Below are positions 12,823 to 54,874 of a stretch of DNA of 64,000 bases, piece after piece. Location of the stretch: contig JAIOOV010000004.1 of NCBI GenBank assembly GCA_021414235.1, positions 473,591 through 537,590 of the forward strand. Reading direction: 5' to 3'. Source of the stretch: Candidatus Parcubacteria bacterium. GTDB taxonomy: Bacteria; Patescibacteriota; Minisyncoccia; Phycocordibacterales; JAKFXT01. Under the pieces are notes generated by a model. That model did no database searches. It was given only the letters and a program-made list of their open reading frames with translations, and was not told the DNA's origin. The position numbers and the translations under genes were made by a program. How positions within the stretch are numbered: the first letter of the stretch is position 1; every line of letters begins with the position of its first letter.

Positions 12823-13197
12823 CTATTGAACTAACGTACCGATCTTGAAGGCAGCGAGCACGTCATTGGGCTGCGCCTGGCTTCCATGCTGGCCATTGAA
12901 TGCAGCGGAGCCATCCTTACCGCATATCTTAAGTATATTCCTCTCCCCTCCCGGATGCTGGCTTATCCACGCAGTCAGATCGTAGACTCCGCCATCAATG
13001 GCGCTCCAGCAGCTCTCCTTCGCAGCGTGAGTGGCTACATCCGCCAGGGTATAGGTCTTGGAAGTATCAACGGAAGTAGTGCCTATGGGCTGACCGTCTT
13101 TCCCTACAAAAGAGCTGGAATTGGTGCTGCTAAAATACCAATAGCCTACGCCGCCCAATACTGCTACCGCGACGAGTCCGATCAGAATTTTGTTCAT
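12823..13197 (-). CDS. Membrane-anchored cytochrome b5-like heme-binding domain protein
   Basis: YTLADVATHAAKESCWSAIDGGVYDLTAWISQHPGGERNI matches the cyt-b5 HPGG signature. N-terminal signal anchor. AT-rich promoter-like region upstream (13198-13300) with a TATAAT. Confidence 0.7.
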   Translation of the reverse strand: MNKILIGLVAVAVLGGVGYWYFSSTNSSSFVGKDGQPIGTTSVDTSKTYTLADVATHAAKESCWSAIDGGVYDLTAWISQHPGGERNILKICGKDGSAAFNGQHGSQAQPNDVLAAFKIGTLVQ

Positions 13198-41890: not shown

Positions 41891-44020
41891 TTAACGCTCC
41901 TCGAAGCGGGGGCTCACCCGGCAGGTAAAGGAGGCGGTATTGGAGACCTTGGCATCCCCGACCCGGCAGACGAAGCGGTAGAGAGACTGGACGGAGACCG
42001 GTGGAGTAAGGACCTGACCAAAAGCGCCGTTGGCGCGCACAGAGAGGTCGGGTCCTGAGATGACACAACGGAGGAACTGAGACTGCTCCGGCGGCACCGA
42101 GCTCACCCGCCAAGGGATGGTGCACTGAGAACCCTTCTGGACGAGCTCTCGCTCCGGCATGAGAGCAGTCACCGCGAGCGCACAGGCCTGCTCGCCAGGA
42201 GGCGGAGGAGCATCAGAGGATTCGTCGGGACAATAGTAGAGAGAGCGGGTTACGCCGCAGGAATTAGGGGCAGACTTGGCTTCAGCAGCTGGCTGCATCT
42301 CGTGGCGAGTGCACTCACCGTCCTTGTCAGTCGCAGTGCAGACATTGCACATCTTGGTCGCGCCGCAGGTAGGACACGGGATCTCCTGACAGGAAGGGAA
42401 TCTCCCCGTCTCTCCTACCCCACAGCTTGTGCGCGGCTGACAGGAGCCGGTCAGTCCGAAATTGATCGCAGTAGGATCCGTACAGAGAGAGCGTCCGCTC
42501 GAATACTGGCAGGCGCCGAGCGCACCGCCATTGAGCGCCAACGGATCGTTGCAGCGGACTGCGCCATAGCGACACTCTCCCGTTTCTCCATAATTGAGAG
42601 CGGTCTGGTCCGCGCAGAGACGCGCGACCGGCTGGTCGGTGCACTGCCCGTTCTCCGGATTCCAATTCGGCTGATTGCTCGGACAAGTGAGACCGATGAT
42701 CACGTCTTTCGTCGCGGGGCACTGAACACCGCTCGGCAGAGTCATGGAAGCGGTAGCCCGGAAATGGTACTGCTGCTTAGGCTGGCTTGCCGCCAGGACA
42801 CCCTCAAGAGAGCGACCATCATTCACCACCGCAAGAGAGGAGGGGAAGGACGTATCACCAGAGGAAGGAGTGAGCGAGTAGCTCTGCGCCGGACGCGAAG
42901 TCTGGATGGTATAGCCTCCGAAGCTTCCCCCTATGATTCCCGCAACACTGCCAGAGCTGGTGATGGTGGGCGTAGAGGTGGCGCACACAGAGGCGGGAGC
43001 TATGGTGATAGCCACGTTCTTTGAAGCTGAAAGAGGGGTACAGCCAGGCGCGCTATTCTCCGCTTGAATGGTACAGGAATATGAACCAGCCGATGTGGGT
43101 ACTCCCCCGATCGACAGAGGACTCGTCCAGCTCGTACCGGAAGGTATGGGCAGACAGCTCATACCGAGCGTCGTGTAGTTGCTGGCAGTTGCTTGATATG
43201 AGAAATTCTCGCCCACCACGCCCGCTGCTGTGCCAGAGGAAGTGATCTCCGGAGCTACAGTCGAACACGTTGCCGGAGTTACTTCTATCTCAAGCACATC
43301 CGCACGTGAACAGCTCGGAGAATTCCTCATGTAGTATCTGTCCTCGCCGCTCCCCGCCACCGTACTGCTCTGGTTATCCCCGGCTCCACCTTCATAGACC
43401 CACTCCTCAAGGTCATTACGAGAAGTGAGGGCTACGGAGTATGTCCCTGGAACAGCAGGCACTCCGGAGATGATGAGACCAGTGGAGTCTGGCACCTGGG
43501 TTACGCCCGCACGCGCCTGCACCCGAGCACTCAAGACGTTCGCGGAAAGGCCGGAACCCGTGAGGCCCGCTGGATCAAGCGAAGTGATACCTGCCCCGAA
43601 CCAGCCTGACTCAAATTCCCCCTTCTCCCGGAGCTGCGGATGCTCCCAAGGAGCAAGATCACGAGAAGGATTGGGATTCACCTGAGCGACCATCACTTCG
43701 TATGAAAAAGATTGACCGGCCTGCGTGGTGACACGGAGGGGACTCGAGAAGCGCGGCGTATTGTATTCAGTGCAATACTGAGGGCTGTAACACTGGCTGC
43801 CGGAAGCACTGCAGTCATCTATATTATTCATTTCCGCTCCGCACTGGCCTCCCGTACAGTCACTGTTACCAGCAGGACTTCCTGAGCTCGTTTCGCTGCC
43901 GCCAGCATCCTCAGCAGCAAGAACTGCAGGAATCTGTCCGATCACAGACAAGTGAATTCCCATGCCCCCGAAGAGAGCAAGCGCGAATGCGGTAGCGAGG
44001 ATAAAAGGAATTTTTTTCAT
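41891..44020 (-). CDS. Large secreted Cys-rich protein with repeated Ig-like segments and a C-terminal domain shared with the YYQ-repeat proteins
   Basis: Signal peptide MKKIPFILATAFALALFGG (internal start at 44020; track ORF runs to 44206). About 60 Cys. C-terminus FTCRVSPRFEER matches the ...CRVNPAFEEI and ...CQVNPTFEEI termini of the 49938 and 50858 products. Confidence 0.6.
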   Translation of the reverse strand: MKKIPFILATAFALALFGGMGIHLSVIGQIPAVLAAEDAGGSETSSGSPAGNSDCTGGQCGAEMNNIDDCSASGSQCYSPQYCTEYNTPRFSSPLRVTTQAGQSFSYEVMVAQVNPNPSRDLAPWEHPQLREKGEFESGWFGAGITSLDPAGLTGSGLSANVLSARVQARAGVTQVPDSTGLIISGVPAVPGTYSVALTSRNDLEEWVYEGGAGDNQSSTVAGSGEDRYYMRNSPSCSRADVLEIEVTPATCSTVAPEITSSGTAAGVVGENFSYQATASNYTTLGMSCLPIPSGTSWTSPLSIGGVPTSAGSYSCTIQAENSAPGCTPLSASKNVAITIAPASVCATSTPTITSSGSVAGIIGGSFGGYTIQTSRPAQSYSLTPSSGDTSFPSSLAVVNDGRSLEGVLAASQPKQQYHFRATASMTLPSGVQCPATKDVIIGLTCPSNQPNWNPENGQCTDQPVARLCADQTALNYGETGECRYGAVRCNDPLALNGGALGACQYSSGRSLCTDPTAINFGLTGSCQPRTSCGVGETGRFPSCQEIPCPTCGATKMCNVCTATDKDGECTRHEMQPAAEAKSAPNSCGVTRSLYYCPDESSDAPPPPGEQACALAVTALMPERELVQKGSQCTIPWRVSSVPPEQSQFLRCVISGPDLSVRANGAFGQVLTPPVSVQSLYRFVCRVGDAKVSNTASFTCRVSPRFEER

Positions 44021-44021
44021 A

Positions 44022-44936
44022 TTAGTTCCAAGAAGAGAGGTAGAGCGTGCCACCTTCGTATGGAGAGAGGTCGAGGATACTCCTACGCTCTCCCGTGTCG
44101 AGCCGCTCGATGACGATCTCGAACTGCGACGCCTCCCCCTTACGTACTCGGAGAGCTGCGTACGCGTTGTCTGGCGAGAACGCCGCATCATACGCTCGCG
44201 CCTCAAGAGTATCGTTGAGAAGAAGCTCCTTCGGATTCACCGGGTTCACCTTGAGCAGCATTACTCGCTCGAGGCCGGGAATGAGCCAGGCAACCAAAGA
44301 GTGATCCTGGCTTGCGGCGAGCTTCATGCCAGCCCCGCTCGCTCCCCAAACCTTGGTCTTGGCGAGAGTCCCTAGGTCGTAGCGCACCAGGCCTTCTGGA
44401 GCGAGCGCAAAGAGCGATTTCCCATCAAGGGACCAGACGGGATAGCTTCCCGCGCCGATGCGGCGTGGAGTCCCTGGGAGATCTATTGCATAGATATCCG
44501 AGCCGCCTCTCGCTTCCTGAGAGTACGCAAGCCCCGTACCCACCGGAGACCAGTCTGGGGAATGCCTAAAGGCTTCTCCACGAGTGATCGGACGACGTTC
44601 CTCCGTAGCGGGATCATAAATGACCACCTGGCTCGCCAGGGCTCCGGGACCGTAGGCGATATGCGCGAGACGATTGCCATCAGGAGCCACTGCCGCATCG
44701 AAATTGGAATTACTATCGCGACCGATACGACGGAGCTCTTTGGTCGCAAGCTCATACTCATACAAATTCACCTCCGTACTCCCTTTATCCGCAAGCGAAA
44801 GGAGAAGTGTGCCCTGAGGATCGAACTTAGCCAAGGACGCAGAGCGCTGATAGAAATACACGCCGAGAGCGGCAGCGAGAAGGAGTATGGAGAGGACTCC
44901 AGCGACGAGGCGAGTACGCGAGGACATTGCGTCCAT
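44022..44936 (-). CDS. TolB-like beta-propeller (PD40 repeat) protein with N-terminal anchor
   Basis: Repeated HSPDWSP..G..LAY and AFSPDNAYAAL motifs. Confidence 0.55.
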   Translation of the reverse strand: MDAMSSRTRLVAGVLSILLLAAALGVYFYQRSASLAKFDPQGTLLLSLADKGSTEVNLYEYELATKELRRIGRDSNSNFDAAVAPDGNRLAHIAYGPGALASQVVIYDPATEERRPITRGEAFRHSPDWSPVGTGLAYSQEARGGSDIYAIDLPGTPRRIGAGSYPVWSLDGKSLFALAPEGLVRYDLGTLAKTKVWGASGAGMKLAASQDHSLVAWLIPGLERVMLLKVNPVNPKELLLNDTLEARAYDAAFSPDNAYAALRVRKGEASQFEIVIERLDTGERRSILDLSPYEGGTLYLSSWN

Positions 44937-44994
44937 TATACGGCATAACCCCGCCTTATGGCGGGGTTATGCACAGCACGATCAGAAATCCGAT

Positions 44995-45426
44995 TTACTG
45001 CTGCACCTCGATTGATCCGCGGAAGCGGGCGTGGAGATGATCATGCATATTCCACTTACCTATCCTCTCGAACTGGAAGGAATAGGTTTCTCCAGGACCT
45101 ACCGGCTTGTCAGAATCGAATTCGGAATAGATTTCGTGCGTCGGATGAAGGTCAGAAGCTGGCCAGTGGAAATCCTTGCCGACATTCACGAACTCTATAA
45201 TCTGGCCCTTCTTGATGACGAGAGTAGAGGGCTCGAAGCCATCGTCAGTCATGTTCACCGTGATCCTAGGGAGAGCAGGCGTAGAAGAAGCGGTATCTGG
45301 CGTAGTAGTAGCTATATTTTCTGTAGGGGTCTCCACGACCACCTCAGGTGCCGTGCGGTTGGTCCAGTAATACCAGCCGCCGCCGAAGACTACGATGACT
45401 ACGGCAAGAAGTATGAGTTTATTCAT
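44995..45426 (-). CDS. Secreted cupredoxin-like, His-rich protein (no Cys)
   Basis: 143 aa. EFVNVGKDFHWPASDLHPTHEIY...WNMHDHLHARF. Overlaps the next gene by 4 nt. Confidence 0.4.
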   Translation of the reverse strand: MNKLILLAVVIVVFGGGWYYWTNRTAPEVVVETPTENIATTTPDTASSTPALPRITVNMTDDGFEPSTLVIKKGQIIEFVNVGKDFHWPASDLHPTHEIYSEFDSDKPVGPGETYSFQFERIGKWNMHDHLHARFRGSIEVQQ

Positions 45427-45920
45427 CGTGAACGCAGGGAAAAGTAAGTAATAGCGCCGCCCGCGAAGAACGCGGCGAGTACCGATAATAGCATACCGAG
45501 AGGAACGGATGATTTGGACGTCTCCGCCTTTTCCGCCTCAAAAGTGAAAGTATGTTCTGCCACGGTTCTGCCCCCCTTCTCAAAACGCACATCCATCTCA
45601 TAGGCCCCCTCCTGCGGAAAACGATAAGTAAGCACCGTCTTGCCGATATCCGCCTTAGCTATGCCCGTAGCGAAATACGCGGCGGAGCCTCTACCGAGAC
45701 GCACCCAGATATGGTCGAAGGCTATTTCTTCCCCTCCGGCATCAAGAACGGAGAAATCAAAAATCGTACTCTCCCCCGAGACTGGAGCAGAAGAGTATCC
45801 GATATCCATCAGAACTCCCGAAGAGAGAGTAGCTTCAAAGGAAGCGCTTTCACCGTGTGCCGCAACGGTACACGGGATGAGCAAGATCGCAATAATGTAA
45901 AACGAGAGTGCGTATTTCAT
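45423..45920 (-). CDS. Secreted beta-rich protein whose mature N-terminus begins with His (CopC/YcnI-like candidate) and has a C-terminal TM anchor
   Basis: Signal peptide MKYALSFYIIAILLIPCTVAA/HGE, C-terminal LLSVLAAFFAGGAITYF. Internal start at 45920 chosen because it abuts the upstream stop (45925). Copper binding is inference only. Confidence 0.4.
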   Translation of the reverse strand: MKYALSFYIIAILLIPCTVAAHGESASFEATLSSGVLMDIGYSSAPVSGESTIFDFSVLDAGGEEIAFDHIWVRLGRGSAAYFATGIAKADIGKTVLTYRFPQEGAYEMDVRFEKGGRTVAEHTFTFEAEKAETSKSSVPLGMLLSVLAAFFAGGAITYFSLRSR

Positions 45921-45924
45921 GATG

Positions 45925-47133
45925 CTATGGACGAGCGCCGCAATGCTCCTGCCACTTCTCCGGAAGGAGAGAACAGAGACGATTCGACTCTGGGGAGCCG
46001 GCATGGAAGGTGAAGCTTGCAGTGCGCACCATGATGTCATAACAAGTCTCCCCTACCCCCTTCGCTTCCGCAGCAGCACAGAGGGCTACGGAGCGTTCGA
46101 TATTGCGGTAGTCGTTCTCCAGGAGGCGGGAAGCCGCATCCGCATAACAGAGCCCGCGATCCTCCGGAAGCATAGTGTCGCAGAACGCGCCGATCTTCTC
46201 GTTATCGAATTCAAGCTGCGCCACGAAGACGAACACCAAGGCATGCTTGCAGCGCTCGCGAGGGCCGGCTTCAGAGAGCTGGTTGCACCAGCGACTAATA
46301 GCGCCTGGCGCCTTCAGCTCTTCTCGCTGAAGCGGCCAGGATTCGCTCCAGCAAGACGCCTTGTCGTAACCGCTATAAGCGGAACAATACGCACGCTGGG
46401 TCCCCGTAGCCACCTCCTTACCCTTGATGAGGTCGAAGTCGTCCGGCTCGAGCGGCTGGAAGATCTGCATGAACACGCCATCGGAGCAGACCTGACTCAT
46501 ATCCTGCCCCGGCTTTATGGAAAGTTCCCTGCACAGACCGAGCGATTTCGGGATATCCGCGCGAGTGATGTACATAAGCAGATGCCCGAGCGCATGGTAG
46601 CAGCTCGCCTGTTCGAGCCCCGTAGGATTGAAGCTATCCTGCGGCTCGCACACGTTCGCGAATTCGGGTTTGTACTTTTCGATCTCGCTGTCAGAGAGAG
46701 ATTCTGTACGGAAGCGTTCTTGGAACGCGCCGTGGATGCAGCCGTTGGAGCATACGCCAGATGGACAGCGCTGGATCACCTCCGTCCACTTATCCGGATC
46801 CTTGGCGGTTTCCTTGGCGCTGATCTTGTGCCCGAGCACATGGCAGTAGGTGTAGGTCTTGTCCTTGGCTTGAACTACTGCTGCGACGCGCACCGCATCC
46901 TCCATGGAAACGCCCTTGTCCATGAGCTTGGGGATCTCGTCTTCGTAGCAGGTCGGACGATATCGTGCGCTCGCGCAAGCGGCGACGACCTCGTCAGCGT
47001 AACGCACCAGACGCATCCCCGGATCAGGAGCAAGCATGGGAGCGGCGAGTATGTAAATCTCACCAAAGAGGAAAGCCGCGAGGATAACGATAGCGGCAGC
47101 AAACTTCGTATGCTTCTTTAAAAACGAGTTCAT
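45925..47133 (-). CDS. Membrane-anchored Cys/His-rich protein, paralog A of a tandem triplicated family (C-x-H-[AG]-x-G-H motif)
   Basis: 402 aa. CYHALGHLLMYI and CHVLGHKIS motifs. 26 Cys. Confidence 0.6.
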   Translation of the reverse strand: MNSFLKKHTKFAAAIVILAAFLFGEIYILAAPMLAPDPGMRLVRYADEVVAACASARYRPTCYEDEIPKLMDKGVSMEDAVRVAAVVQAKDKTYTYCHVLGHKISAKETAKDPDKWTEVIQRCPSGVCSNGCIHGAFQERFRTESLSDSEIEKYKPEFANVCEPQDSFNPTGLEQASCYHALGHLLMYITRADIPKSLGLCRELSIKPGQDMSQVCSDGVFMQIFQPLEPDDFDLIKGKEVATGTQRAYCSAYSGYDKASCWSESWPLQREELKAPGAISRWCNQLSEAGPRERCKHALVFVFVAQLEFDNEKIGAFCDTMLPEDRGLCYADAASRLLENDYRNIERSVALCAAAEAKGVGETCYDIMVRTASFTFHAGSPESNRLCSLLPEKWQEHCGARP

Positions 47134-47134
47134 A

Positions 47135-48145
47135 TCAGCGGATTATCTGAGAACCGGCCACACAGCTCTGTCGTGCATCTTCCGAAAGTCCGGCGCAGAG
47201 CTGAGGCGAGAGATCCCGCACGCGAGGCTCTGCGAAGAAGCTCCAGGAAGCCCCCTGGCGGCACAGCAGCTGTTCTTCCGTCCCAACGAGACTATTGCAG
47301 ACAGCGAGAGACTTCTTTACATCATACCCCGACTCCGGAGCCACGATATTGCCGATACCTTTGAAGCACGCCTCCCGCTCGCCCTTCGCACCAACCTCGG
47401 CACAGAGAGCGGCTGCTGGAGCGGCATCTCCATTAAATGTCCGCATCCACCATTGCGGCATATCGAAATAGCAGGCTTCGCGATATATGGAAAGAGCGTC
47501 GCAGGGCGCATGCGCCTTCTTCGGGTCGAACATGCGCGGGGAGGTAAGGTCGGGATCAGCCATCGTATGAAAATTGTACTCCATGAAGACTCCGCCGGAG
47601 CAGCCGCCGATCGGTCCTTTCCAGGTGAGCGTCGCACAGATATCGAGCGCCTCCGCGAGTTTGTCATCGCCGACAGACCACAGGAGGCCGTGCCCGATTC
47701 CATGCGAGCAGCCCAGGCCCTTCTCTCCCCACGCTGCCACGCAGGCGCGATCAAGCTGGCCAAGCACTTCTACCCCATGCTCGCTGATGGCCCGCCCGAA
47801 GAAGCTGTGGTAGCAGCCGAAGCCGAACGAGCTGTCACAGACCGCGACCCCAGGAAGTCCCTCTTTCTCATACAGTAACTCCCCAAAGACATGCGCAAGC
47901 GAATGCGCCGAGCCAGGCGGAAGCTTTCCGTACACCTCCACGAATTTCTGGTACGCAGCCTTCGCACCCAGCGTATCTATGGTCTCTGCCCACTCAGCCT
48001 TCTCACGCTTAAAATATTTGGATTGGAGCCGTGGTGGATCAGGGACCTCGGTGCCGCGCGAGATATACAGATAGTATGCTTCGCCAGCTACGAAAAAGAT
48101 CAGGATAGCGGCGGCGAAAATAAGTTTTAACGGGTAACGGCGCAT
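47135..48145 (-). CDS. Membrane-anchored Cys/His-rich protein, paralog B
   Basis: 336 aa. CSHGIGHGLLWS and SAHSLAHVFG motifs. Confidence 0.6.
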   Translation of the reverse strand: MRRYPLKLIFAAAILIFFVAGEAYYLYISRGTEVPDPPRLQSKYFKREKAEWAETIDTLGAKAAYQKFVEVYGKLPPGSAHSLAHVFGELLYEKEGLPGVAVCDSSFGFGCYHSFFGRAISEHGVEVLGQLDRACVAAWGEKGLGCSHGIGHGLLWSVGDDKLAEALDICATLTWKGPIGGCSGGVFMEYNFHTMADPDLTSPRMFDPKKAHAPCDALSIYREACYFDMPQWWMRTFNGDAAPAAALCAEVGAKGEREACFKGIGNIVAPESGYDVKKSLAVCNSLVGTEEQLLCRQGASWSFFAEPRVRDLSPQLCAGLSEDARQSCVAGSQIIR

Positions 48146-49335
48146 GAGGCAGTATAGGGTTGCGGATAAGCAGCGCAGAACTCTCTCATGTAACGACCAT
48201 CGCGGCCTCTAAAATAACGCGCCATATCTGCGAGCCGGGTGAAGCAATCTCTCTGATCGCCCTCTTCCGGAATCACGCTGCAGTAACGTACCGAGGCATG
48301 GAAATCATTCTCCCCTCCCCAATAAAGCGAAGCGACTGCCTGAAAGGAGCAATCCCTCCTGCCATCTTCCGCTGGCGAGAGCGAGCACCACTCATACATC
48401 GTACGCATAGCCTCATCCGGAAGTGATGTCACCGCACGTACATCGCGAGAAGAGAGGATTACCGGGAACTCCTTACCGAAACCACCGAAGCAGGCGCGCC
48501 GATCCTCTCTCTGTGTGAGCGCGTCACAATAGGTCATGCCAATCCTGAAATCTTCCGCCTTCGGAGCTCCCAGATTGCCTCCGGCAGCCTCCATAAGATG
48601 CGGAGTGAGGTAGGTGTAGCAGAAGCCGCGCACATCCTTCGGCATGAAATCCGCGTCACAGGGATAGAGCGGATCTTCCTCCTTGAAATATTTCTTCGCC
48701 TTCTCCTCGCGGAGCTTAGGATCATGTACGCCGCCGGTCATCTCCATGATGGTGCCGCCGATGCACTCCTGGTATTCGTTCGCCTTGTTACCAGCAGATT
48801 CCCCCGCGCGCTTACAGAGCGGCACCGCCTGATCCAGTTCGTAATCCGTATATGCAAGCACGCCATGCCCCAGGCCGTGATAGCACATGTTGTACGCTCC
48901 GGCACCGCCGGGAGCCTTGCGACAGATCGCAGCCACCTTCTCGAGCACGGGCGGCCCGAACTCGAGAAGCGCGCCGATCACTACCGTATGCGAGCAGGCG
49001 TTGCGCAGATCAGGCGTGCAGTAGGCCATACCCTCGAGGCCATATTGCTTGTAGAGCTCATCCCCCACCGTATGTCCCACGAGATGCATGTCCACACCGG
49101 GGACAGAAGGCATGCGGATGAGCACCTGGTACGCATACGGAGCACCTTTGGCTTCGGCAAGATCCCGAAAGTATCGCGAGAGCTCGGGGAAGGAGCGTGG
49201 TGTCTGGAGTTCAGCGAGTTCCGGATATGAACCCGCGCTCGCAAAGAGAAGATAGCCCCCGAGAGAGAGATTCAGAAGGAGAAGGGCGGCAGCTGAAGAG
49301 AGAATCAGCCGGTACCGGAAGAGAGACCGCATCAA
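48127..49335 (-). CDS. Membrane-anchored Cys/His-rich protein, paralog C
   Basis: 402 aa. MCYHGLGHGVLAYT and HLVGHTVGDELY motifs. Confidence 0.6.
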   Translation of the reverse strand: MMRSLFRYRLILSSAAALLLLNLSLGGYLLFASAGSYPELAELQTPRSFPELSRYFRDLAEAKGAPYAYQVLIRMPSVPGVDMHLVGHTVGDELYKQYGLEGMAYCTPDLRNACSHTVVIGALLEFGPPVLEKVAAICRKAPGGAGAYNMCYHGLGHGVLAYTDYELDQAVPLCKRAGESAGNKANEYQECIGGTIMEMTGGVHDPKLREEKAKKYFKEEDPLYPCDADFMPKDVRGFCYTYLTPHLMEAAGGNLGAPKAEDFRIGMTYCDALTQREDRRACFGGFGKEFPVILSSRDVRAVTSLPDEAMRTMYEWCSLSPAEDGRRDCSFQAVASLYWGGENDFHASVRYCSVIPEEGDQRDCFTRLADMARYFRGRDGRYMREFCAAYPQPYTASCAVTR

Positions 49336-49342
49336 GAAGTGA

Positions 49343-49879
49343 TTACTCCGTCACGAAGATCATGCCAGAGGCGCTTACGGAAGATCCGCAGCCGTAGCCG
49401 TAGATGCCGCCATTCTGGGCAAATGCGACCTTGAACTCCTTGGTTTCTCCAGCAGGAACGGAGTACACGGAATCCTTATTGAAGGCGATGGTCTGCTCTA
49501 CCGTTGCCGTGTTCTTTATTTTAAGAGGCGCGCCTTTCTTTAGCGCGAGCACCACCGGCTTCACAGAACAACTCGTGCCGATCTCAAGCGCCGGGACCGT
49601 TTTAGCTGCAGAGACCACTACATCAAAGAATGCTTTCTGCTCTGCCGCCGTCGCATTCTGGGAAGGAGGCGTAAGCGCTTTCTTCTCCTCAGCAGAGAGC
49701 TCGTAGGAAGAGCCAGCGGGAAGATTCACCCCAGTAGAAGGAGTCTGCGGAGCGTTTGTCGAAGGATTCTGGGAGGTCGTGCCCGCAAGAGGCTTATAAT
49801 CCCGCACATAGATGAGATAACCGAGGACGACAGCGCCGACCGCAAGTACCCCGACGATGATCTTTAATGTTCGCTCCAT
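49343..49879 (-). CDS. Membrane-anchored hypothetical protein (178 aa)
   Basis: N-terminal TM, Ser/Thr/Pro linker, C-terminal beta-rich domain ending GGIYGYGCGSSVSASGMIFVTE. Confidence 0.5.
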   Translation of the reverse strand: MERTLKIIVGVLAVGAVVLGYLIYVRDYKPLAGTTSQNPSTNAPQTPSTGVNLPAGSSYELSAEEKKALTPPSQNATAAEQKAFFDVVVSAAKTVPALEIGTSCSVKPVVLALKKGAPLKIKNTATVEQTIAFNKDSVYSVPAGETKEFKVAFAQNGGIYGYGCGSSVSASGMIFVTE

Positions 49880-49937
49880 ATGATTATATTTATGATTACA
49901 GTGAGTATACTCCGTTCGACGTCTCCATTATCCCCAG

Positions 49938-50795
49938 TTAGATCTCCTCAAAAGCAGGATTGACCCGGCAATCCACCGTCTTCGAGGTATTAACTTCAGA
50001 ACCGTTGTAGCAACGTACTGTGTAGGTACTCGTCTCGGTGACATTCGGTACGGATACCGAACCGGATGTCCCTGTCTGGCTCACTCCTGGGCCCGTGACC
50101 GTGCAGGAAGTAGCATTCGTCGCTGACCAGGTGAAGCTGCAGGAAGCGCCTTTGTTGATCACGATGGAGGGAGCGGCAGGAACCGTGGTGATGGTGGGCG
50201 CCGTACAAGAGGATTCCGGCGGAGCCACGGTAGCGGAACACGCACCCGCACAGCTATACGTACCGTAGGTCACCGCGCCGCAGCTATTAGCGGCAGATGT
50301 ACAGACCTGTCCCTGGTTGGCAGAGCAATAAGAAGCTTGGTAGTAGCCCTGGGAGTAGTAGTAGCCTTGATAGTACCCCTGCGAGTAATAGTAAGGTTGG
50401 TAATACCCCTGAGAGTAGTAGTAGCCTTGGGAATAGTAGTAGCCTTCGTAATACCCCTGGTAGTAAGACTGGTAATAACTTTGATAATACGATTGATAGT
50501 ACCCTTGGTAGTAACCCTGGTAGTACCCCTGATAGTAGGATTGGTAGTAGCCTTGGTAATACCCCTCTGCATAAGAATCCCCCGAAGCCGGGAGTATGAC
50601 TCCTCCCTCCTCTCCATTCGGTGAGAGCGAGTTGTAATCAATCTCTGGAGACTGCGGACCAGAGCTCTTCTCCAAATACCCCAAACTTGCTAGAGAGATG
50701 ACGAGAAAGATTGCCACACTCGCAAAGGAAAGGAGCCTGCGCTCGCGGAGTAGGTTAGAAAATCTTTTATTTATTTCACGAAAAAAGTGCCTCAT
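49938..50795 (-). CDS. Tyr/Gln/Gly-rich repeat protein 1 (YYQGYYQS repeats) with N-terminal anchor and conserved Cys-rich C-terminal domain
   Basis: 285 aa. About 25 copies of (G/S)YYQ-type units, then the ASYCSANQGQVCTSAANSCGAVTYGTYSCAGACSATVAP domain ending CRVNPAFEEI. Confidence 0.7.
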   Translation of the reverse strand: MRHFFREINKRFSNLLRERRLLSFASVAIFLVISLASLGYLEKSSGPQSPEIDYNSLSPNGEEGGVILPASGDSYAEGYYQGYYQSYYQGYYQGYYQGYYQSYYQSYYQSYYQGYYEGYYYSQGYYYSQGYYQPYYYSQGYYQGYYYSQGYYQASYCSANQGQVCTSAANSCGAVTYGTYSCAGACSATVAPPESSCTAPTITTVPAAPSIVINKGASCSFTWSATNATSCTVTGPGVSQTGTSGSVSVPNVTETSTYTVRCYNGSEVNTSKTVDCRVNPAFEEI

Positions 50796-50857: not shown

Positions 50858-51775
50858 TTAGATTTCTTCAAAAGTCGGATTGACCTGGCAGTTCACCGTC
50901 TTTGTGGTATTCACCATGGAGCCATTGTAACAACGCACTTGGTAGCTTCTCGATTGCGTGATATCAGGGACAGACACTGAGCCCGAAAGACCAGTGGAAT
51001 TCACCCCAGGACCGGTCACGACGCAAGAAGTAGCATTAGCACTGCTCCAGCTAAAGCTGCAAGCATCGCCTCTATTGATGACGATTGTCGGAGAAGGAGG
51101 CGCAACAGTGATAACTGGGACGACGCAGGAAGATTCCGCAGGAGCCACGGTAGCGGAACACGCACCCGCACAGCTATACGTACCGTAGGTCACCGCGCCG
51201 CAGCTATTAGCGGCAGATGTACAGACCTGTCCCTGGTTGGCAGAGCAATAAGAAGCTTGGTAGTAACCTTGATAATAACCTTGATACGCCGCTTGATAGG
51301 CGGACTGGTAATAGCTCTGGTAGTAGGATTGATAAGCAGCCTCATATCCAGCTTGGTAATACCCTTCGTAATAAGGCTGATAGTAGCTCTCGTACGTAGA
51401 CTGATATTGGCTCTGGTAATACGCCTCGTAGGTCGACTGGTACTGGCTTTGATAGTAACCCTCGTACGTAGACTGATATTGGCTCTGGTAATACGCCTCG
51501 TAGGTCGACTGGTACTGGCTCTGGTAATAGCTTTGGTAAGCAGCTTCAAAATAAGAATCCCCCGAAGCCGGGAGTATGACTCCCCCCTCCTCACCATTCG
51601 GTGAGAGCGAGTTGTAATCAATCTCTGGAGACTGCGGACCGTTATCAATCGGCTGAAGGTAGCTCAAGGCGGAAATCACAGCCAAAACCAGAGCCAATAC
51701 CGCCAGAAAGAGCAACTTCCGATCACACAGCAAAGCGCCCATATTACGCCGCCATCTCTTAAGAAGGTACTTCAT
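50858..51775 (-). CDS. Tyr/Gln-rich repeat protein 2 (YYQSQYQSTYEA repeats), tandem paralog of 49938..50795
   Basis: 305 aa. Shares two exact or near-exact nucleotide blocks with its neighbour (50221-50345 = 51142-51266; 50572-50660 ~ 51552-51640). Confidence 0.7.
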   Translation of the reverse strand: MKYLLKRWRRNMGALLCDRKLLFLAVLALVLAVISALSYLQPIDNGPQSPEIDYNSLSPNGEEGGVILPASGDSYFEAAYQSYYQSQYQSTYEAYYQSQYQSTYEGYYQSQYQSTYEAYYQSQYQSTYESYYQPYYEGYYQAGYEAAYQSYYQSYYQSAYQAAYQGYYQGYYQASYCSANQGQVCTSAANSCGAVTYGTYSCAGACSATVAPAESSCVVPVITVAPPSPTIVINRGDACSFSWSSANATSCVVTGPGVNSTGLSGSVSVPDITQSRSYQVRCYNGSMVNTTKTVNCQVNPTFEEI

Positions 51776-52652: not shown

Positions 52653-54119
52653 ATGAATACCCAGTATCAAAGAGAAGACCCGCGCAGACTTGAGGTTGCG
52701 ATCCGTACAAAAGATTTTGCTTCTCTCTATGTGAAATCTTACTGGAAACGAAGTTTCCTAGAAGCCCTCCTTGGGACCCTGGAGGAACGTCTCGGGATAG
52801 AAATCTTGACCAAAGTACCGGAGAATCTTCGTGATGTTCACCTGCTGATATTCAAGAACCTGACAATCATAGAAAAATTGAGGAGACAGGGAATATTAGA
52901 GAAGGTCGAAGTCCTTAATCCTCCACCAGATGAGCCCCCTCTATACCGCGTTCATACAAAGGGCCATCTTCGCGCCTCCGGTGCAAGCTTCCTTGATCCT
53001 GAAAAAGCCCTGTGGAGCGCGCTCGGGGAGTGCGTCGAACGCTCTCTATGGTCAGGCTCTTCGGAATGGTACGAAAAGAAGATCAAGGTCTCTTCGTATA
53101 AAGAGCTTCCTGGGGATAAGATAGACCCCCGCTCAATTACTGGTTTCTCCGAGGAACAGAAGAGCTTGGATCCGATGCTACAAGTGGATGAATCGACAGT
53201 TCTCGGCTGGGTACAAGCCAAAGAAAAAATCTCCGGAAAGATGATCTGGGTACCTCTCCAGCTTTTCAGCGCCGAATATTGCCAGAAGAGACAGAAGTCT
53301 CCTGAACGACCGGAAAACGTCGAGCCACTTCTCCGTTCCGCCGTAACCACAGGACTCGCGACTTCTTCACATAGCCACGAAGAAGCCGTCCTCTACGGGG
53401 CATTGGAAGCGATCGAACGCGATGCTTTCATGATCTGCTGGCTCAAACGCCTCTCGCCTCCTCGCATCGATATCAATCACCTCGCCGAACAAGACGATGA
53501 TCTGAAAAGCATTCTTGATTCCCTGGCTCGCTACCACCTCCGTGCAGAACTGCTTCTACTTCCGACTGATTTTCCTTTCCTGGTCATCGCAGCCGTTCTG
53601 CTCGATGAAAGCGGAAAGGGGCCGGCGTTTACTATGGGCGCAAAGGCGCATTGGGATATGAAAACCGCCATCCTTGGAGCCCTCTCTGAAGCCGCTAGCG
53701 TACGCTTTTCTCTTAAAACCGCATACGAAGCCCCTGTGGACATGAAGAAGGTCGGTCGCAAGGAGCGCTTGATCTATTGGGCAAAGGAGGAAAACACCCC
53801 GAAACGCAGCTTTCTTACACAGGGGGAAATAAGAAAGATCACTCTAGAAGAGAATAAGAGTGATACTGGCACAGAATCTCTCCGACTGTCGGAAGCCTTG
53901 AGAAATAAGAAATATCCATTGTATGAAGTCGAGATAAGTTCCGAAGCAAGCCGTAGAAGCGGTTTTCGTTCAGTCTGTGTGCATATCCCTGACCTGCAGC
54001 CGATGCATCTCGACGAGCGAGTTCCCGCTCTCGCCGGAAAACGCCTGGCAGAGATTCCCTCTCTCCTCGGATACGAACCCGCCAAAGAAATGAATCCTGA
54101 ACCCCACCCCTTTCCATGA
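52653..54119 (+). CDS. YcaO-domain protein, azoline-forming cyclodehydratase type (C-terminal PxPxP)
   Basis: GASFLDPEKALWSALGECVERSLW and HEEAVLYGALEAIERDAFMICWL (YcaO ATP-binding Glu motifs). Extreme C-terminus NPEPHPFP. Stop TGA overlaps the start of the next gene (ATGA). Confidence 0.8.
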   Translation: MNTQYQREDPRRLEVAIRTKDFASLYVKSYWKRSFLEALLGTLEERLGIEILTKVPENLRDVHLLIFKNLTIIEKLRRQGILEKVEVLNPPPDEPPLYRVHTKGHLRASGASFLDPEKALWSALGECVERSLWSGSSEWYEKKIKVSSYKELPGDKIDPRSITGFSEEQKSLDPMLQVDESTVLGWVQAKEKISGKMIWVPLQLFSAEYCQKRQKSPERPENVEPLLRSAVTTGLATSSHSHEEAVLYGALEAIERDAFMICWLKRLSPPRIDINHLAEQDDDLKSILDSLARYHLRAELLLLPTDFPFLVIAAVLLDESGKGPAFTMGAKAHWDMKTAILGALSEAASVRFSLKTAYEAPVDMKKVGRKERLIYWAKEENTPKRSFLTQGEIRKITLEENKSDTGTESLRLSEALRNKKYPLYEVEISSEASRRSGFRSVCVHIPDLQPMHLDERVPALAGKRLAEIPSLLGYEPAKEMNPEPHPFP

Positions 54120-54874
54120 ATAACCATTTCGCCAAGCGGTTCCATCATCAAGCCATCGCGAACTGGCGTCTACCCAAAACTCGCGATGCCAAGAATCCGA
54201 TCCCCAGGGAAGATATCTTATTCAAGACATACCCTCGCTCTGAAAACACGGCGCTCGCCGAGCCGCTTCCCCTCAGCCATACACTCGAGAAAACCCTCTC
54301 CGAGCGGAAGACGACGCGCTCCTTCGATCCAGTCTCCGCCGTCAGTTTCCAAGAACTCTCTTCCCTGCTCTTCTGGAGCGCCGGACTTAGAGAGAACCGT
54401 ACAGACCCACAACAGAGCAAACGGTTCTATCCATCCGCGGGAGAACGTTATCCGCTAGAGATATATATAGCTGCGCGCAACGTCGATGGCTTGCCTAAAG
54501 GCCTGTATCACTTCAATCTCCTCAAGAACTCTCTGGAGAAGATAGGTGGTGAGGAATACTGCGATAATTTTCAAAAAAACCTCGGGTACGAATGGTCTAG
54601 GGATACCGCAGTAGCCATCCTCATCACCGGAGTATGGGAGCGGACTTTCTCAAAATACGGGGATTTCGGATATCGGCTCATATGTACAGAAGCCGGACAT
54701 GTGGCGCAAAATCTACAGCTCATAGCCCAATCCCTTGGTCTGGACTATGCCTCTATCGCAGGGTTCAAAGAAAAAGAGATGGATACCCTCCTAAATCTGG
54801 ACTCGGATAAAGAATCATCTCTCTACCTGACCCTCATAGGAAAAGCTACACCTTCCACCCGAACGAACGCATGA
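54116..54874 (+). CDS. SagB-type (McbC-like) FMN-dependent dehydrogenase of the nitroreductase superfamily
   Basis: SERKTTRSFDPVSAVSFQELSSLLFWSAGL...YPSAGERYPLEIYI...ICTEAGHVAQNLQLIAQSLGL. Translationally coupled to the YcaO gene. Confidence 0.75.
   Translation: MNNHFAKRFHHQAIANWRLPKTRDAKNPIPREDILFKTYPRSENTALAEPLPLSHTLEKTLSERKTTRSFDPVSAVSFQELSSLLFWSAGLRENRTDPQQSKRFYPSAGERYPLEIYIAARNVDGLPKGLYHFNLLKNSLEKIGGEEYCDNFQKNLGYEWSRDTAVAILITGVWERTFSKYGDFGYRLICTEAGHVAQNLQLIAQSLGLDYASIAGFKEKEMDTLLNLDSDKESSLYLTLIGKATPSTRTNA

Follow-up and report, generated by a model that had tools for sequence, protein, structure and literature searches.

A free N-terminal histidine is a known chelator of Cu(II). Histidines contributed by successive helices form metal sites in deoxyhypusine hydroxylase, a HEAT-repeat di-iron enzyme, and in type-3 copper centres, in which an HxxxH motif and an additional histidine are located on helix pairs. 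The Helicobacter Hcp proteins consist of Sel1-like/TPR alpha-alpha repeats that are stapled by disulfides, with one pair of cysteines per repeat. In B. subtilis, YcnI binds one Cu(II) via the N-terminal His27, Glu50 and the nearby Trp137 (PMC8424229), and the cupredoxins FtrB and EfeO-N have no Cys ligand (PMC11966278). These proteins, along with cupredoxins of the amicyanin/plastocyanin type, are the closest described counterparts of the products of a six-gene cluster, D-C-B-A-E-F, located at positions 44995-49879 of the window analyzed here, a 64,000-nucleotide stretch of contig JAIOOV010000004.1 of Candidatus Parcubacteria bacterium (assembly GCA_021414235.1, positions 473,591 to 537,590). 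The cluster is conserved in the Paceibacteria/Parcubacteria (Patescibacteria), and all six products are predicted to face outward from the cell membrane. Judging from the sequences, the system appears to be devoted to extracytoplasmic, histidine-based metal handling and to combine cupredoxin-type partners with an undescribed domain family, the repeat domain of A, B and C, which we denote REP.

Given that three different folds each carry a nearly invariant histidine feature and that REP and F are repeatedly fused, we assign about an even chance to the interpretation of D-C-B-A-E-F as a surface module for metal binding or relay. In this module, four nearly invariant imidazoles of REP would form one metal site, complemented in most members by a methionine and a fifth histidine; F would present four invariant histidines at the copper-site end of its fold, with an aspartate replacing the type-1 cysteine; and E would expose a free N-terminal histidine on a beta-sandwich that is tethered by a C-terminal helix. 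The products would bind a divalent metal outside the cell and then either relay it among themselves or hold it, the purpose being acquisition, buffering or a copper-dependent redox reaction. The metal is probably Cu(II), a proposal that we hold somewhat less firmly than that of the module itself, in view of the descent of F from cupredoxins, the capacity of an N-terminal histidine to chelate Cu(II), and the combination of an imidazole-rich site with a methionine in REP. That the proteins bind a metal, which metal this would be and which way it might be transferred are inferred. The copper, other metal or redox function that was put forward in a preliminary description of this locus is thus supported in part, by three independent lines: the homology of F, the invariant histidine of E, and the four histidines of REP together with the fusions to F.

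Conservation in REP was quantified for 312 domains of all subfamilies from 81 loci, aligned to the family hidden Markov model (HMM) and numbered according to protein C, in which the residues of the putative site are H84, H88, H116, H153, H157, M197, E198 and H204. H84 is present in 100% of the domains, and H88, H153 and H157 in 99% each. Apart from cysteines (C151 and C191, 100%; C174, 99%; C138, 96%) and glycines (G156 and G194, 99%), the invariant core consists of these two HxxxH motifs, the histidines of which occupy positions i and i+4 of the predicted helices 83-105 and 145-162. Conservation is lower for M197 (79%, with Asn in 14%), H116 (68%, with Asn in 21%), E198 (57%) and H204 (30%). 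All three REP proteins of the window keep the four histidines, H116 and M197 in the multiple alignment; A has Gln at the position of Glu198 and no equivalent of His204. Under the proposed arrangement, successive helices in the N-terminal third of REP would offer H84-x3-H88, C114-x-H116 and C151-x-H153-x3-H157, and a helix of the next repeat would contribute M197. A home-made mean-field coupling analysis (509 distinct domains; effective number of sequences, Meff, 495) placed several pairs from these segments within the top L couplings (rank in parentheses): G87-A113 (13), R111-M150 (52), C114-M197 (71), H88-H153 (78), G91-H116 (81) and H153-M197 (138). The mutual coupling of the histidine-bearing segments supports a single contiguous site that would consist of H84, H88, H116, H153, H157 and M197, and from these couplings together with the predicted secondary structure we infer that the histidines cluster in three dimensions.

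The cysteines of REP, by contrast with the histidines, are probably structural and would form one disulfide per hairpin. This assignment follows from their even counts, the occurrence of one pair per hairpin, the covariation of the pair members, and the fact that no CxxC pattern is conserved across the REP family. In C, the pairs are 106/114, 138/151, 174/191, 226/239, 270/282, 317/329, 352/364 and 387/398; according to the couplings, C106-C114, C270-C282, C317-C329 and C387-C398 are gained or lost jointly. If the cysteines are structural, REP is a histidine-site family rather than a family with Cys and His ligands, so that, of the Cys/His-rich metal-binding family originally proposed, the conserved histidine site stands and the cysteine ligands most likely do not. 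A gene for a DsbA-like thioredoxin is located near the cluster in about 8 loci (for example, L001:4431-5147(-)), as expected of a neighbor of Cys-rich exported proteins, which require such an enzyme for folding; no DsbA homologue is encoded in the window.

A, B and C are paralogues, and each starts with a basic stretch that is followed by a hydrophobic helix (residues 3-33 in the model of C), in agreement with the N-terminal anchor initially reported. The similarity between them is low, with 20-24% identity in the multiple alignment and pairwise matches of E=1e-17 at 28% identity for B and C, E=2e-6 for A and B, and E=7e-5 for A and C; the REP HMM recognizes B with E=4e-65 and A with E=5e-57. 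The ancient origin of the paralogy that had been deduced from the low identity is thus borne out. Two other features of the preliminary description need correction. Instead of 20-26 cysteines, the three proteins contain 14-20 (Table 1), and the C-x-H-[AG]-x-G-H motif, which was taken to be repeated, occurs once per protein (at A178, B146 and C151). The element that is actually repeated, as revealed by off-register local alignments among A, B and C, is a helix hairpin of approximately 34-48 residues with a pair of cysteines 8-17 residues apart, and the overall layout is predicted to be an anchor followed by about nine such hairpins.

A word-indexed search identified at least 1042 homologues of C among the candidates scored. 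The 120 homologues listed all come from Patescibacteria, Parcubacteria or Paceibacteria, all are annotated as "hypothetical protein", and none has a precomputed Pfam domain. An exhaustive profile search recovered 4,894 representative clusters (50% identity) at E<=1e-3, including 3,061 at E<=1e-10. Given that thousands of homologues share a nearly invariant signature, the pattern in A, B and C is far above chance. To obtain genomic neighborhoods, one genome per species was scanned, which yielded 169 loci; 80 were kept, almost all from metagenome-assembled genomes of Patescibacteria, the few others bearing automatic labels.

The REP sequences are not recognized by the domain collections that were searched: A, B and C match no Pfam (E<=1) or NCBIfam model, and no Pfam model recurs among 122 members of the family. 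A check of the motif against Pfam or the domains of unknown function (DUFs) had been suggested initially. The weak matches to SOR, CutC and similar families that appear in a few of the 122 members (best E 0.02 or weaker) were disregarded. When the REP alignment was used as a profile against PDB sequences, the matches (MYLIP, caspase-7) did not rise above chance level. The AlphaFold model of C is all-alpha and of high confidence (pLDDT 96), and the Foldseek search with this model, which had been suggested as a check, retrieved no solved relative but only generic TPR, HEAT and designed repeat proteins, the best PDB match having E=3.4e-3, TM ~0.2 and rmsd ~20 A. Membership in the TPR, Sel1 or HEAT families was rejected because there is neither a profile match nor a close superposition. 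A LanC-like or other alpha-alpha toroid zinc enzyme, considered on account of the CHG-type motif, was also rejected, as such enzymes are missing both from the Pfam matches and from the Foldseek top 50. The translations contain neither HExxH-type peptidase motifs nor CxxCH haem motifs in their conserved motif stretches. Neither the REP family nor the D-C-B-A-E-F cluster was found described in the literature on copper and cupredoxins of Patescibacteria, on Cys-rich families from candidate phyla radiation (CPR) bacteria, and on YcnI and the histidine brace. Taken with the confidently predicted all-alpha fold, for which there is no solved relative, REP appears to be an undescribed domain family.

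In architecture, REP can be compared with the Hcp proteins, which share with it secreted or anchored helix-hairpin repeats and one Cys pair per repeat. The likeness is one of architecture only: REP has no Sel1 or TPR match and is variable both in repeat length (34-48 aa) and in Cys spacing (8-17 aa), and, to our knowledge, the four-histidine signature does not occur in Hcp proteins. With deoxyhypusine hydroxylase and the type-3 copper centres, REP has in common that successive helices each contribute a histidine. No sequence or fold relation to either was detected, and the positions H116, M197 and H204 of REP are far from invariant.

The last gene of the cluster, F, encodes a true cupredoxin homologue, in line with the cupredoxin-like assignment made initially. 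Its product matches the Pfam family Cupredoxin_1 (PF13473) with E=1.4e-7 and 31.9 bits, above the gathering score of 27, as do 36 of its 42 orthologues, and in a profile search of the PDB the full domain aligns with amicyanin at E=4.4e-8. The invariant residues are W88-P-A-S, H94, P95, H97, D104, W125, H128 and H130, and D129 is nearly invariant. In the alignment with amicyanin, H94 is paired with His53, and D129, which has H128 and H130 on either side, with the type-1 ligand Cys92; the positions of His95 and Met98 of amicyanin are not conserved. Accordingly, F shares with amicyanin and plastocyanin both homology and conserved histidine at the canonical copper end, but differs from them in being membrane-anchored, often fused to REP, and devoid of the His-Cys-His-Met set. 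A type-1 (blue) copper protein was rejected because F contains no cysteine at all, and H94, H97, H128 and H130 take the place of the His-Cys-His-Met/Gln set. The absence of a Cys ligand is a trait that F has in common with EfeO-N (Cup-I) and FtrB (Cup-II), but, unlike these, F is not accompanied by an iron permease; assignment to the EfeO-N/FtrB type was also rejected, since neither protein is among the 60 PDB matches listed, which comprise amicyanin, plastocyanin, NirK and laccases, and no permease family is recurrent in the 81 loci. F is therefore a new cupredoxin variant, the copper-site end of which has been rebuilt from histidine and aspartate.

The first gene, D, encodes a cupredoxin-like protein minus the histidine site. 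Profile-profile comparison links the D and F families with a probability of 93.6% (E=2.2e-7), and D has Y-G-Y-G-C where F has W-x-x-H-D-H. In 34 orthologues of D, C104, P108, N123, C164 and G172 are invariant, and a Cys104-Cys164 disulfide is probable.

In E, the histidine H22 directly follows a predicted A-x-A-type cleavage site and is invariant: two independent alignments of 30 orthologues each show it in every sequence. A21 (position -1) and G41 are invariant or nearly so, and E29, D39, D55 and W72 are nearly invariant. When used alone as a homology query, E retrieved only 3 proteins, and a profile search was needed to delineate the family. The AlphaFold model (pLDDT 91) shows an eight-strand beta-sandwich and a helix at 141-164, and in Foldseek it has generic Ig/FN3-like matches, with the copper protein CrdA of H. 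pylori at rank 16. No match to DUF1775 (PF07987) was obtained for E at E<=1 or for 30 family members at E<=0.1, and neither E nor these 30 members match CopC (PF04234) in Pfam. A classical two-histidine brace was rejected, as H22 is the sole invariant histidine. E and YcnI share a signal peptide, a predicted mature N-terminal histidine, a beta-sandwich and a C-terminal transmembrane tether; E also has conserved acidic residues and a tryptophan, but at positions other than those in YcnI. Hence, from the CopC/YcnI-like assignment made in the preliminary description, the predicted N-terminal histidine and the YcnI architecture can be retained, but not detectable membership in either family: E looks like a YcnI analogue rather than a DUF1775 protein.

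The conservation of gene content and order was examined by comparing the open reading frames (ORFs) of 82 loci with the window proteins using BLAST and HMMs built in this work. Many of the loci end at contig ends, so that the fractions in which a gene is present are lower bounds. Clear orthologues in related loci number 94 for A, 98 for B and 84 for C, with median identities of 41%, 37% and 45%, respectively. C precedes B in 59 loci, against 2 with the reverse order, and precedes A in 61, again against 2; the contiguous order C-B-A is found in 47 of 81 loci. The existence of three orthologous subfamilies in a conserved order implies that the triplication is older than the divergence of the sampled lineages. 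The paralogy that underlies the original claim of tandem triplication is thus upheld, whereas a local duplication is not, given that the C-B-A order is kept across the class. Overall, the 81 loci contain 377 ORFs with REP, about 4.7 per locus. D is present in 31 of the 81 loci, and 31 of the 40 D genes adjoin a REP gene; an F-domain gene is present in 60 loci; and E is present in 32, with 25 of the 32 E genes adjoining an F-domain gene. The window itself contains the minimal core, in which each of the six cluster genes occurs once; a search of the window detected no further copies of REP, D, E or F.

Fusions of F to REP account for 66 ORFs in 40 loci and, among representatives, show the layouts F-REP, F-REP-REP, REP-REP-F, REP-REP-F-F and REP-F-REP. 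In one protein (P0248), REP-REP precedes two cupredoxin-like domains, one of which also matches the plastocyanin/azurin family model. Giant proteins contain 4-7 tandem REP domains (P0151, 3580 aa; P0185, P0195, P0198 and P0206). Fusions of REP to enzymes are rare: in one locus it is attached to a PMT_2 (GT-C) glycosyltransferase, at the C-terminus of the latter, and in another to an Abhydrolase_2 esterase (L069:3981-6419 and L051:13785-15923). Both proteins retain the HxxxH motifs.

Several observations weigh against the interpretation of the cluster as a surface metal module. The conserved neighbors of the cluster in the 81 loci include no transporter or regulator of metals and no known cuproenzyme. 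E has no detectable relation to DUF1775 or CopC, both of which are also missing from the PDB profile search and the Foldseek top 50. Couplings between nearly invariant columns may reflect the joint loss of the site in a few degenerate sequences. Surveys of Patescibacteria report limited metabolism, with respiratory oxidases in some genomes only (PMC8672522, PMC9166423), so that a class-wide demand for copper is not obvious. Finally, the abundance of REP genes, the 7-domain giants and the fusions to an esterase and a GT-C enzyme would be just as compatible with a role in binding or as a scaffold. Under such an alternative, REP would be a metal-free surface scaffold, adhesin or substrate-binding module, that is, a rigid, disulfide-stapled alpha-solenoid for a protein or glycan of the host surface or of the cell's own envelope, in which the histidines form a binding or catalytic pocket. 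Apart from the gene numbers and tandem domains, this possibility is favored by the PMT_2 and Abhydrolase_2 fusions (PMT_2 genes are also located near the clusters in L001 and L057), by the absence of a conserved transporter from the cluster, and by the fold matches being limited to generic TPR, HEAT and designed repeat proteins. We nevertheless consider it unlikely because four histidines conserved at 99-100% are rare in binding scaffolds when the other conserved positions are Cys and Gly, and because the recurrent partners, a cupredoxin with a histidine site and a protein with an N-terminal histidine, fit metal chemistry more readily.

If the products do bind a metal, it could be iron rather than copper, in a module of the EfeO or FtrA/FtrB kind in which F would oxidize Fe(II), possibly with Cu(II), and REP would capture Fe(III). 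F matches the Pfam family Cupredoxin_1; FtrB, also a cupredoxin without Cys, has ferroxidase activity and a periplasmic partner, FtrA (PMC11966278). Moreover, the F-REP fusions parallel EfeO in that an N-terminal Cys-less cupredoxin is followed by an all-helical domain with a histidine site. Here the resemblance ends: REP does not match Peptidase_M75, the helical metal-binding domain of EfeO, and is a disulfide-stapled repeat domain of approximately 320 aa, and neither the EfeU/Ftr1-type permease nor EfeB or a polyferredoxin is recurrent in the 81 loci. For F, amicyanins are the best relatives of solved structure, EfeO-N and FtrB being absent from the 60 matches listed, and a site made up entirely of His and Met is better suited to Cu, Zn or Ni than to Fe(III). 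On balance, the iron module appears unlikely. A function based on the cysteines, which would either bind metal in the manner of copper storage proteins or be the redox-active thiols of a thiol-disulfide relay outside the cell, would be consistent with the large number of cysteines per protein and with the DsbA-like gene near some clusters; it is, however, very improbable, considering that the evenly numbered cysteines form one pair per hairpin, are gained and lost pairwise in extracytoplasmic proteins, and include no family-wide CxxC, which is the pattern of structural disulfides. A more specific possibility, which we regard as quite unlikely, is that REP represents a new class of extracytoplasmic metalloproteins, disulfide-stapled alpha-solenoids in which successive helices would build a histidine-rich, possibly binuclear centre. 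REP would then have oxidase or oxygenase activity or, alternatively, be the last recipient in a copper relay, and the system might be aimed at the host cell surface. In the binuclear variant, the half-sites would be (H84, H88, H116) and (H153, H157, M197 or H204); in subfamily C, (H84, H88) with H116 and (H153, H157) with H204 or M197 would allow two half-sites of three ligands each. In the relay variant, which would be specific to the CPR, copper would pass from E to F to REP.

The seven ORFs A-G are all found in the ORF list at the coordinates given in the preliminary description, on the minus strand (Table 1). The six genes of the cluster are tightly spaced, with gaps of 7 nt between D and C, 1 nt between B and A, and 4 nt between A and E, and with overlaps of 19 nt for B/C and 4 nt for E/F; in the ORF list, C starts with TTG and an ATG follows one codon later. 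The proposal of one long operon is compatible with this spacing but not with the inclusion of the downstream TolB-like gene G, in which profile searches of Pfam and NCBIfam detected PD40/TolB-like repeats: G has a homologue in 0 of 82 related loci and is separated from F by a strong RNA hairpin. The fold of 44937-44998(-) has an energy of -32.3 kcal/mol (z=-6.35 compared with shuffled sequences). The hairpin is not followed by a T-run and thus is not a canonical intrinsic terminator, and it was missed by the consensus terminator scan; it is likely to mark the 3' boundary of the transcription unit. Given the lack of co-conservation of the TolB-like gene and the presence of the hairpin, the unit would extend from D through F, limits that are derived from gene spacing, the folded hairpin and synteny. 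At the other end, the ATG of D is preceded, at a distance of 3 nt, by a perfect TATAAT, which may mark a promoter whose leader would be very short or absent. The consensus scan called no full promoter upstream of D, and the promoter and terminator sites that it found are no more numerous than expected by chance.

Table 1. Genes and other features of the D-C-B-A-E-F cluster and its borders (window coordinates)
Feature	Coordinates	Strand	Description
Candidate promoter gap	49880-49937	minus	58-nt, AT-rich, upstream of D; TATAAT at 49883-49888
D	49343-49879	minus	178 aa; first cluster gene; N-terminal anchor and C-terminal cupredoxin-like domain
C	48127-49335	minus	402 aa; REP subfamily C; N-terminal anchor; 16 Cys in 8 apparent pairs
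B	47135-48145	minus	336 aa; REP subfamily B; 14 Cys; CSHGIGHG at residue 146
A	45925-47133	minus	402 aa; REP subfamily A; 20 Cys; CYHALGH at residue 178
E	45423-45920	minus	165 aa; signal peptide, eight-strand beta-sandwich and C-terminal transmembrane helix (predicted)
F	44995-45426	minus	143 aa; last cluster gene; N-terminally anchored Cys-less cupredoxin
RNA hairpin	44938-44979	minus	GC-rich core stem of 13 bp; within the 58 nt that separate F from G
G	44022-44936	minus	304 aa; TolB-like ORF, outside the cluster

Just upstream of the cluster are two tandem paralogues, 49938-50795(-) and 50858-51775(-), that are 58% identical and N-terminally anchored. Both contain an extended low-complexity stretch rich in Tyr (GYYQ/SYYQ/YEAYYQSQ) and, at the C-terminus, a domain of about 125 aa that includes Cys and has NP[AT]FEEI as its last residues. 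The same domain (E=2e-10) is located at the end of a large Cys-rich protein encoded downstream of the cluster (41891-44206(-)), where the final residues are SPRFEER; this shared domain may have a role in sorting or anchoring. Similar Tyr-rich proteins adjoin REP clusters in four other loci (L005, L028, L038 and L060). Elsewhere in the window, a gene for a YcaO cyclodehydratase (52653-54119(+); Pfam E=1.6e-48) overlaps by 4 nt a gene of the nitroreductase family (54116-54874(+)), and the two resemble a cyclodehydratase/dehydrogenase pair for azoline formation. The window also encodes a small haem-binding protein of cytochrome b5-like type with an N-terminal anchor (12823-13197(-); Pfam Cyt-b5, E=1.5e-19), which may be unusual for such a genome.

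Few bacteria are as abundant, or as poorly understood, as the Paceibacteria, and a large part of the genes conserved in them still lacks a functional assignment. The D-C-B-A-E-F cluster is a candidate for a conserved function of the cell surface in these organisms, which might consist in acquiring or buffering metals or in redox chemistry where these cells meet their host, and the soluble ectodomains of its products constitute a concrete set for bioinorganic tests of metal binding. If the REP site binds copper, the copper-binding folds known so far would be joined by a new protein scaffold, and a copper requirement, or a defence against copper, would be implied in organisms of reportedly very limited metabolism. 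Should REP be, in addition, a metalloprotein served by a copper relay, the cluster would represent a major, previously unseen use of copper in the Paceibacteria.

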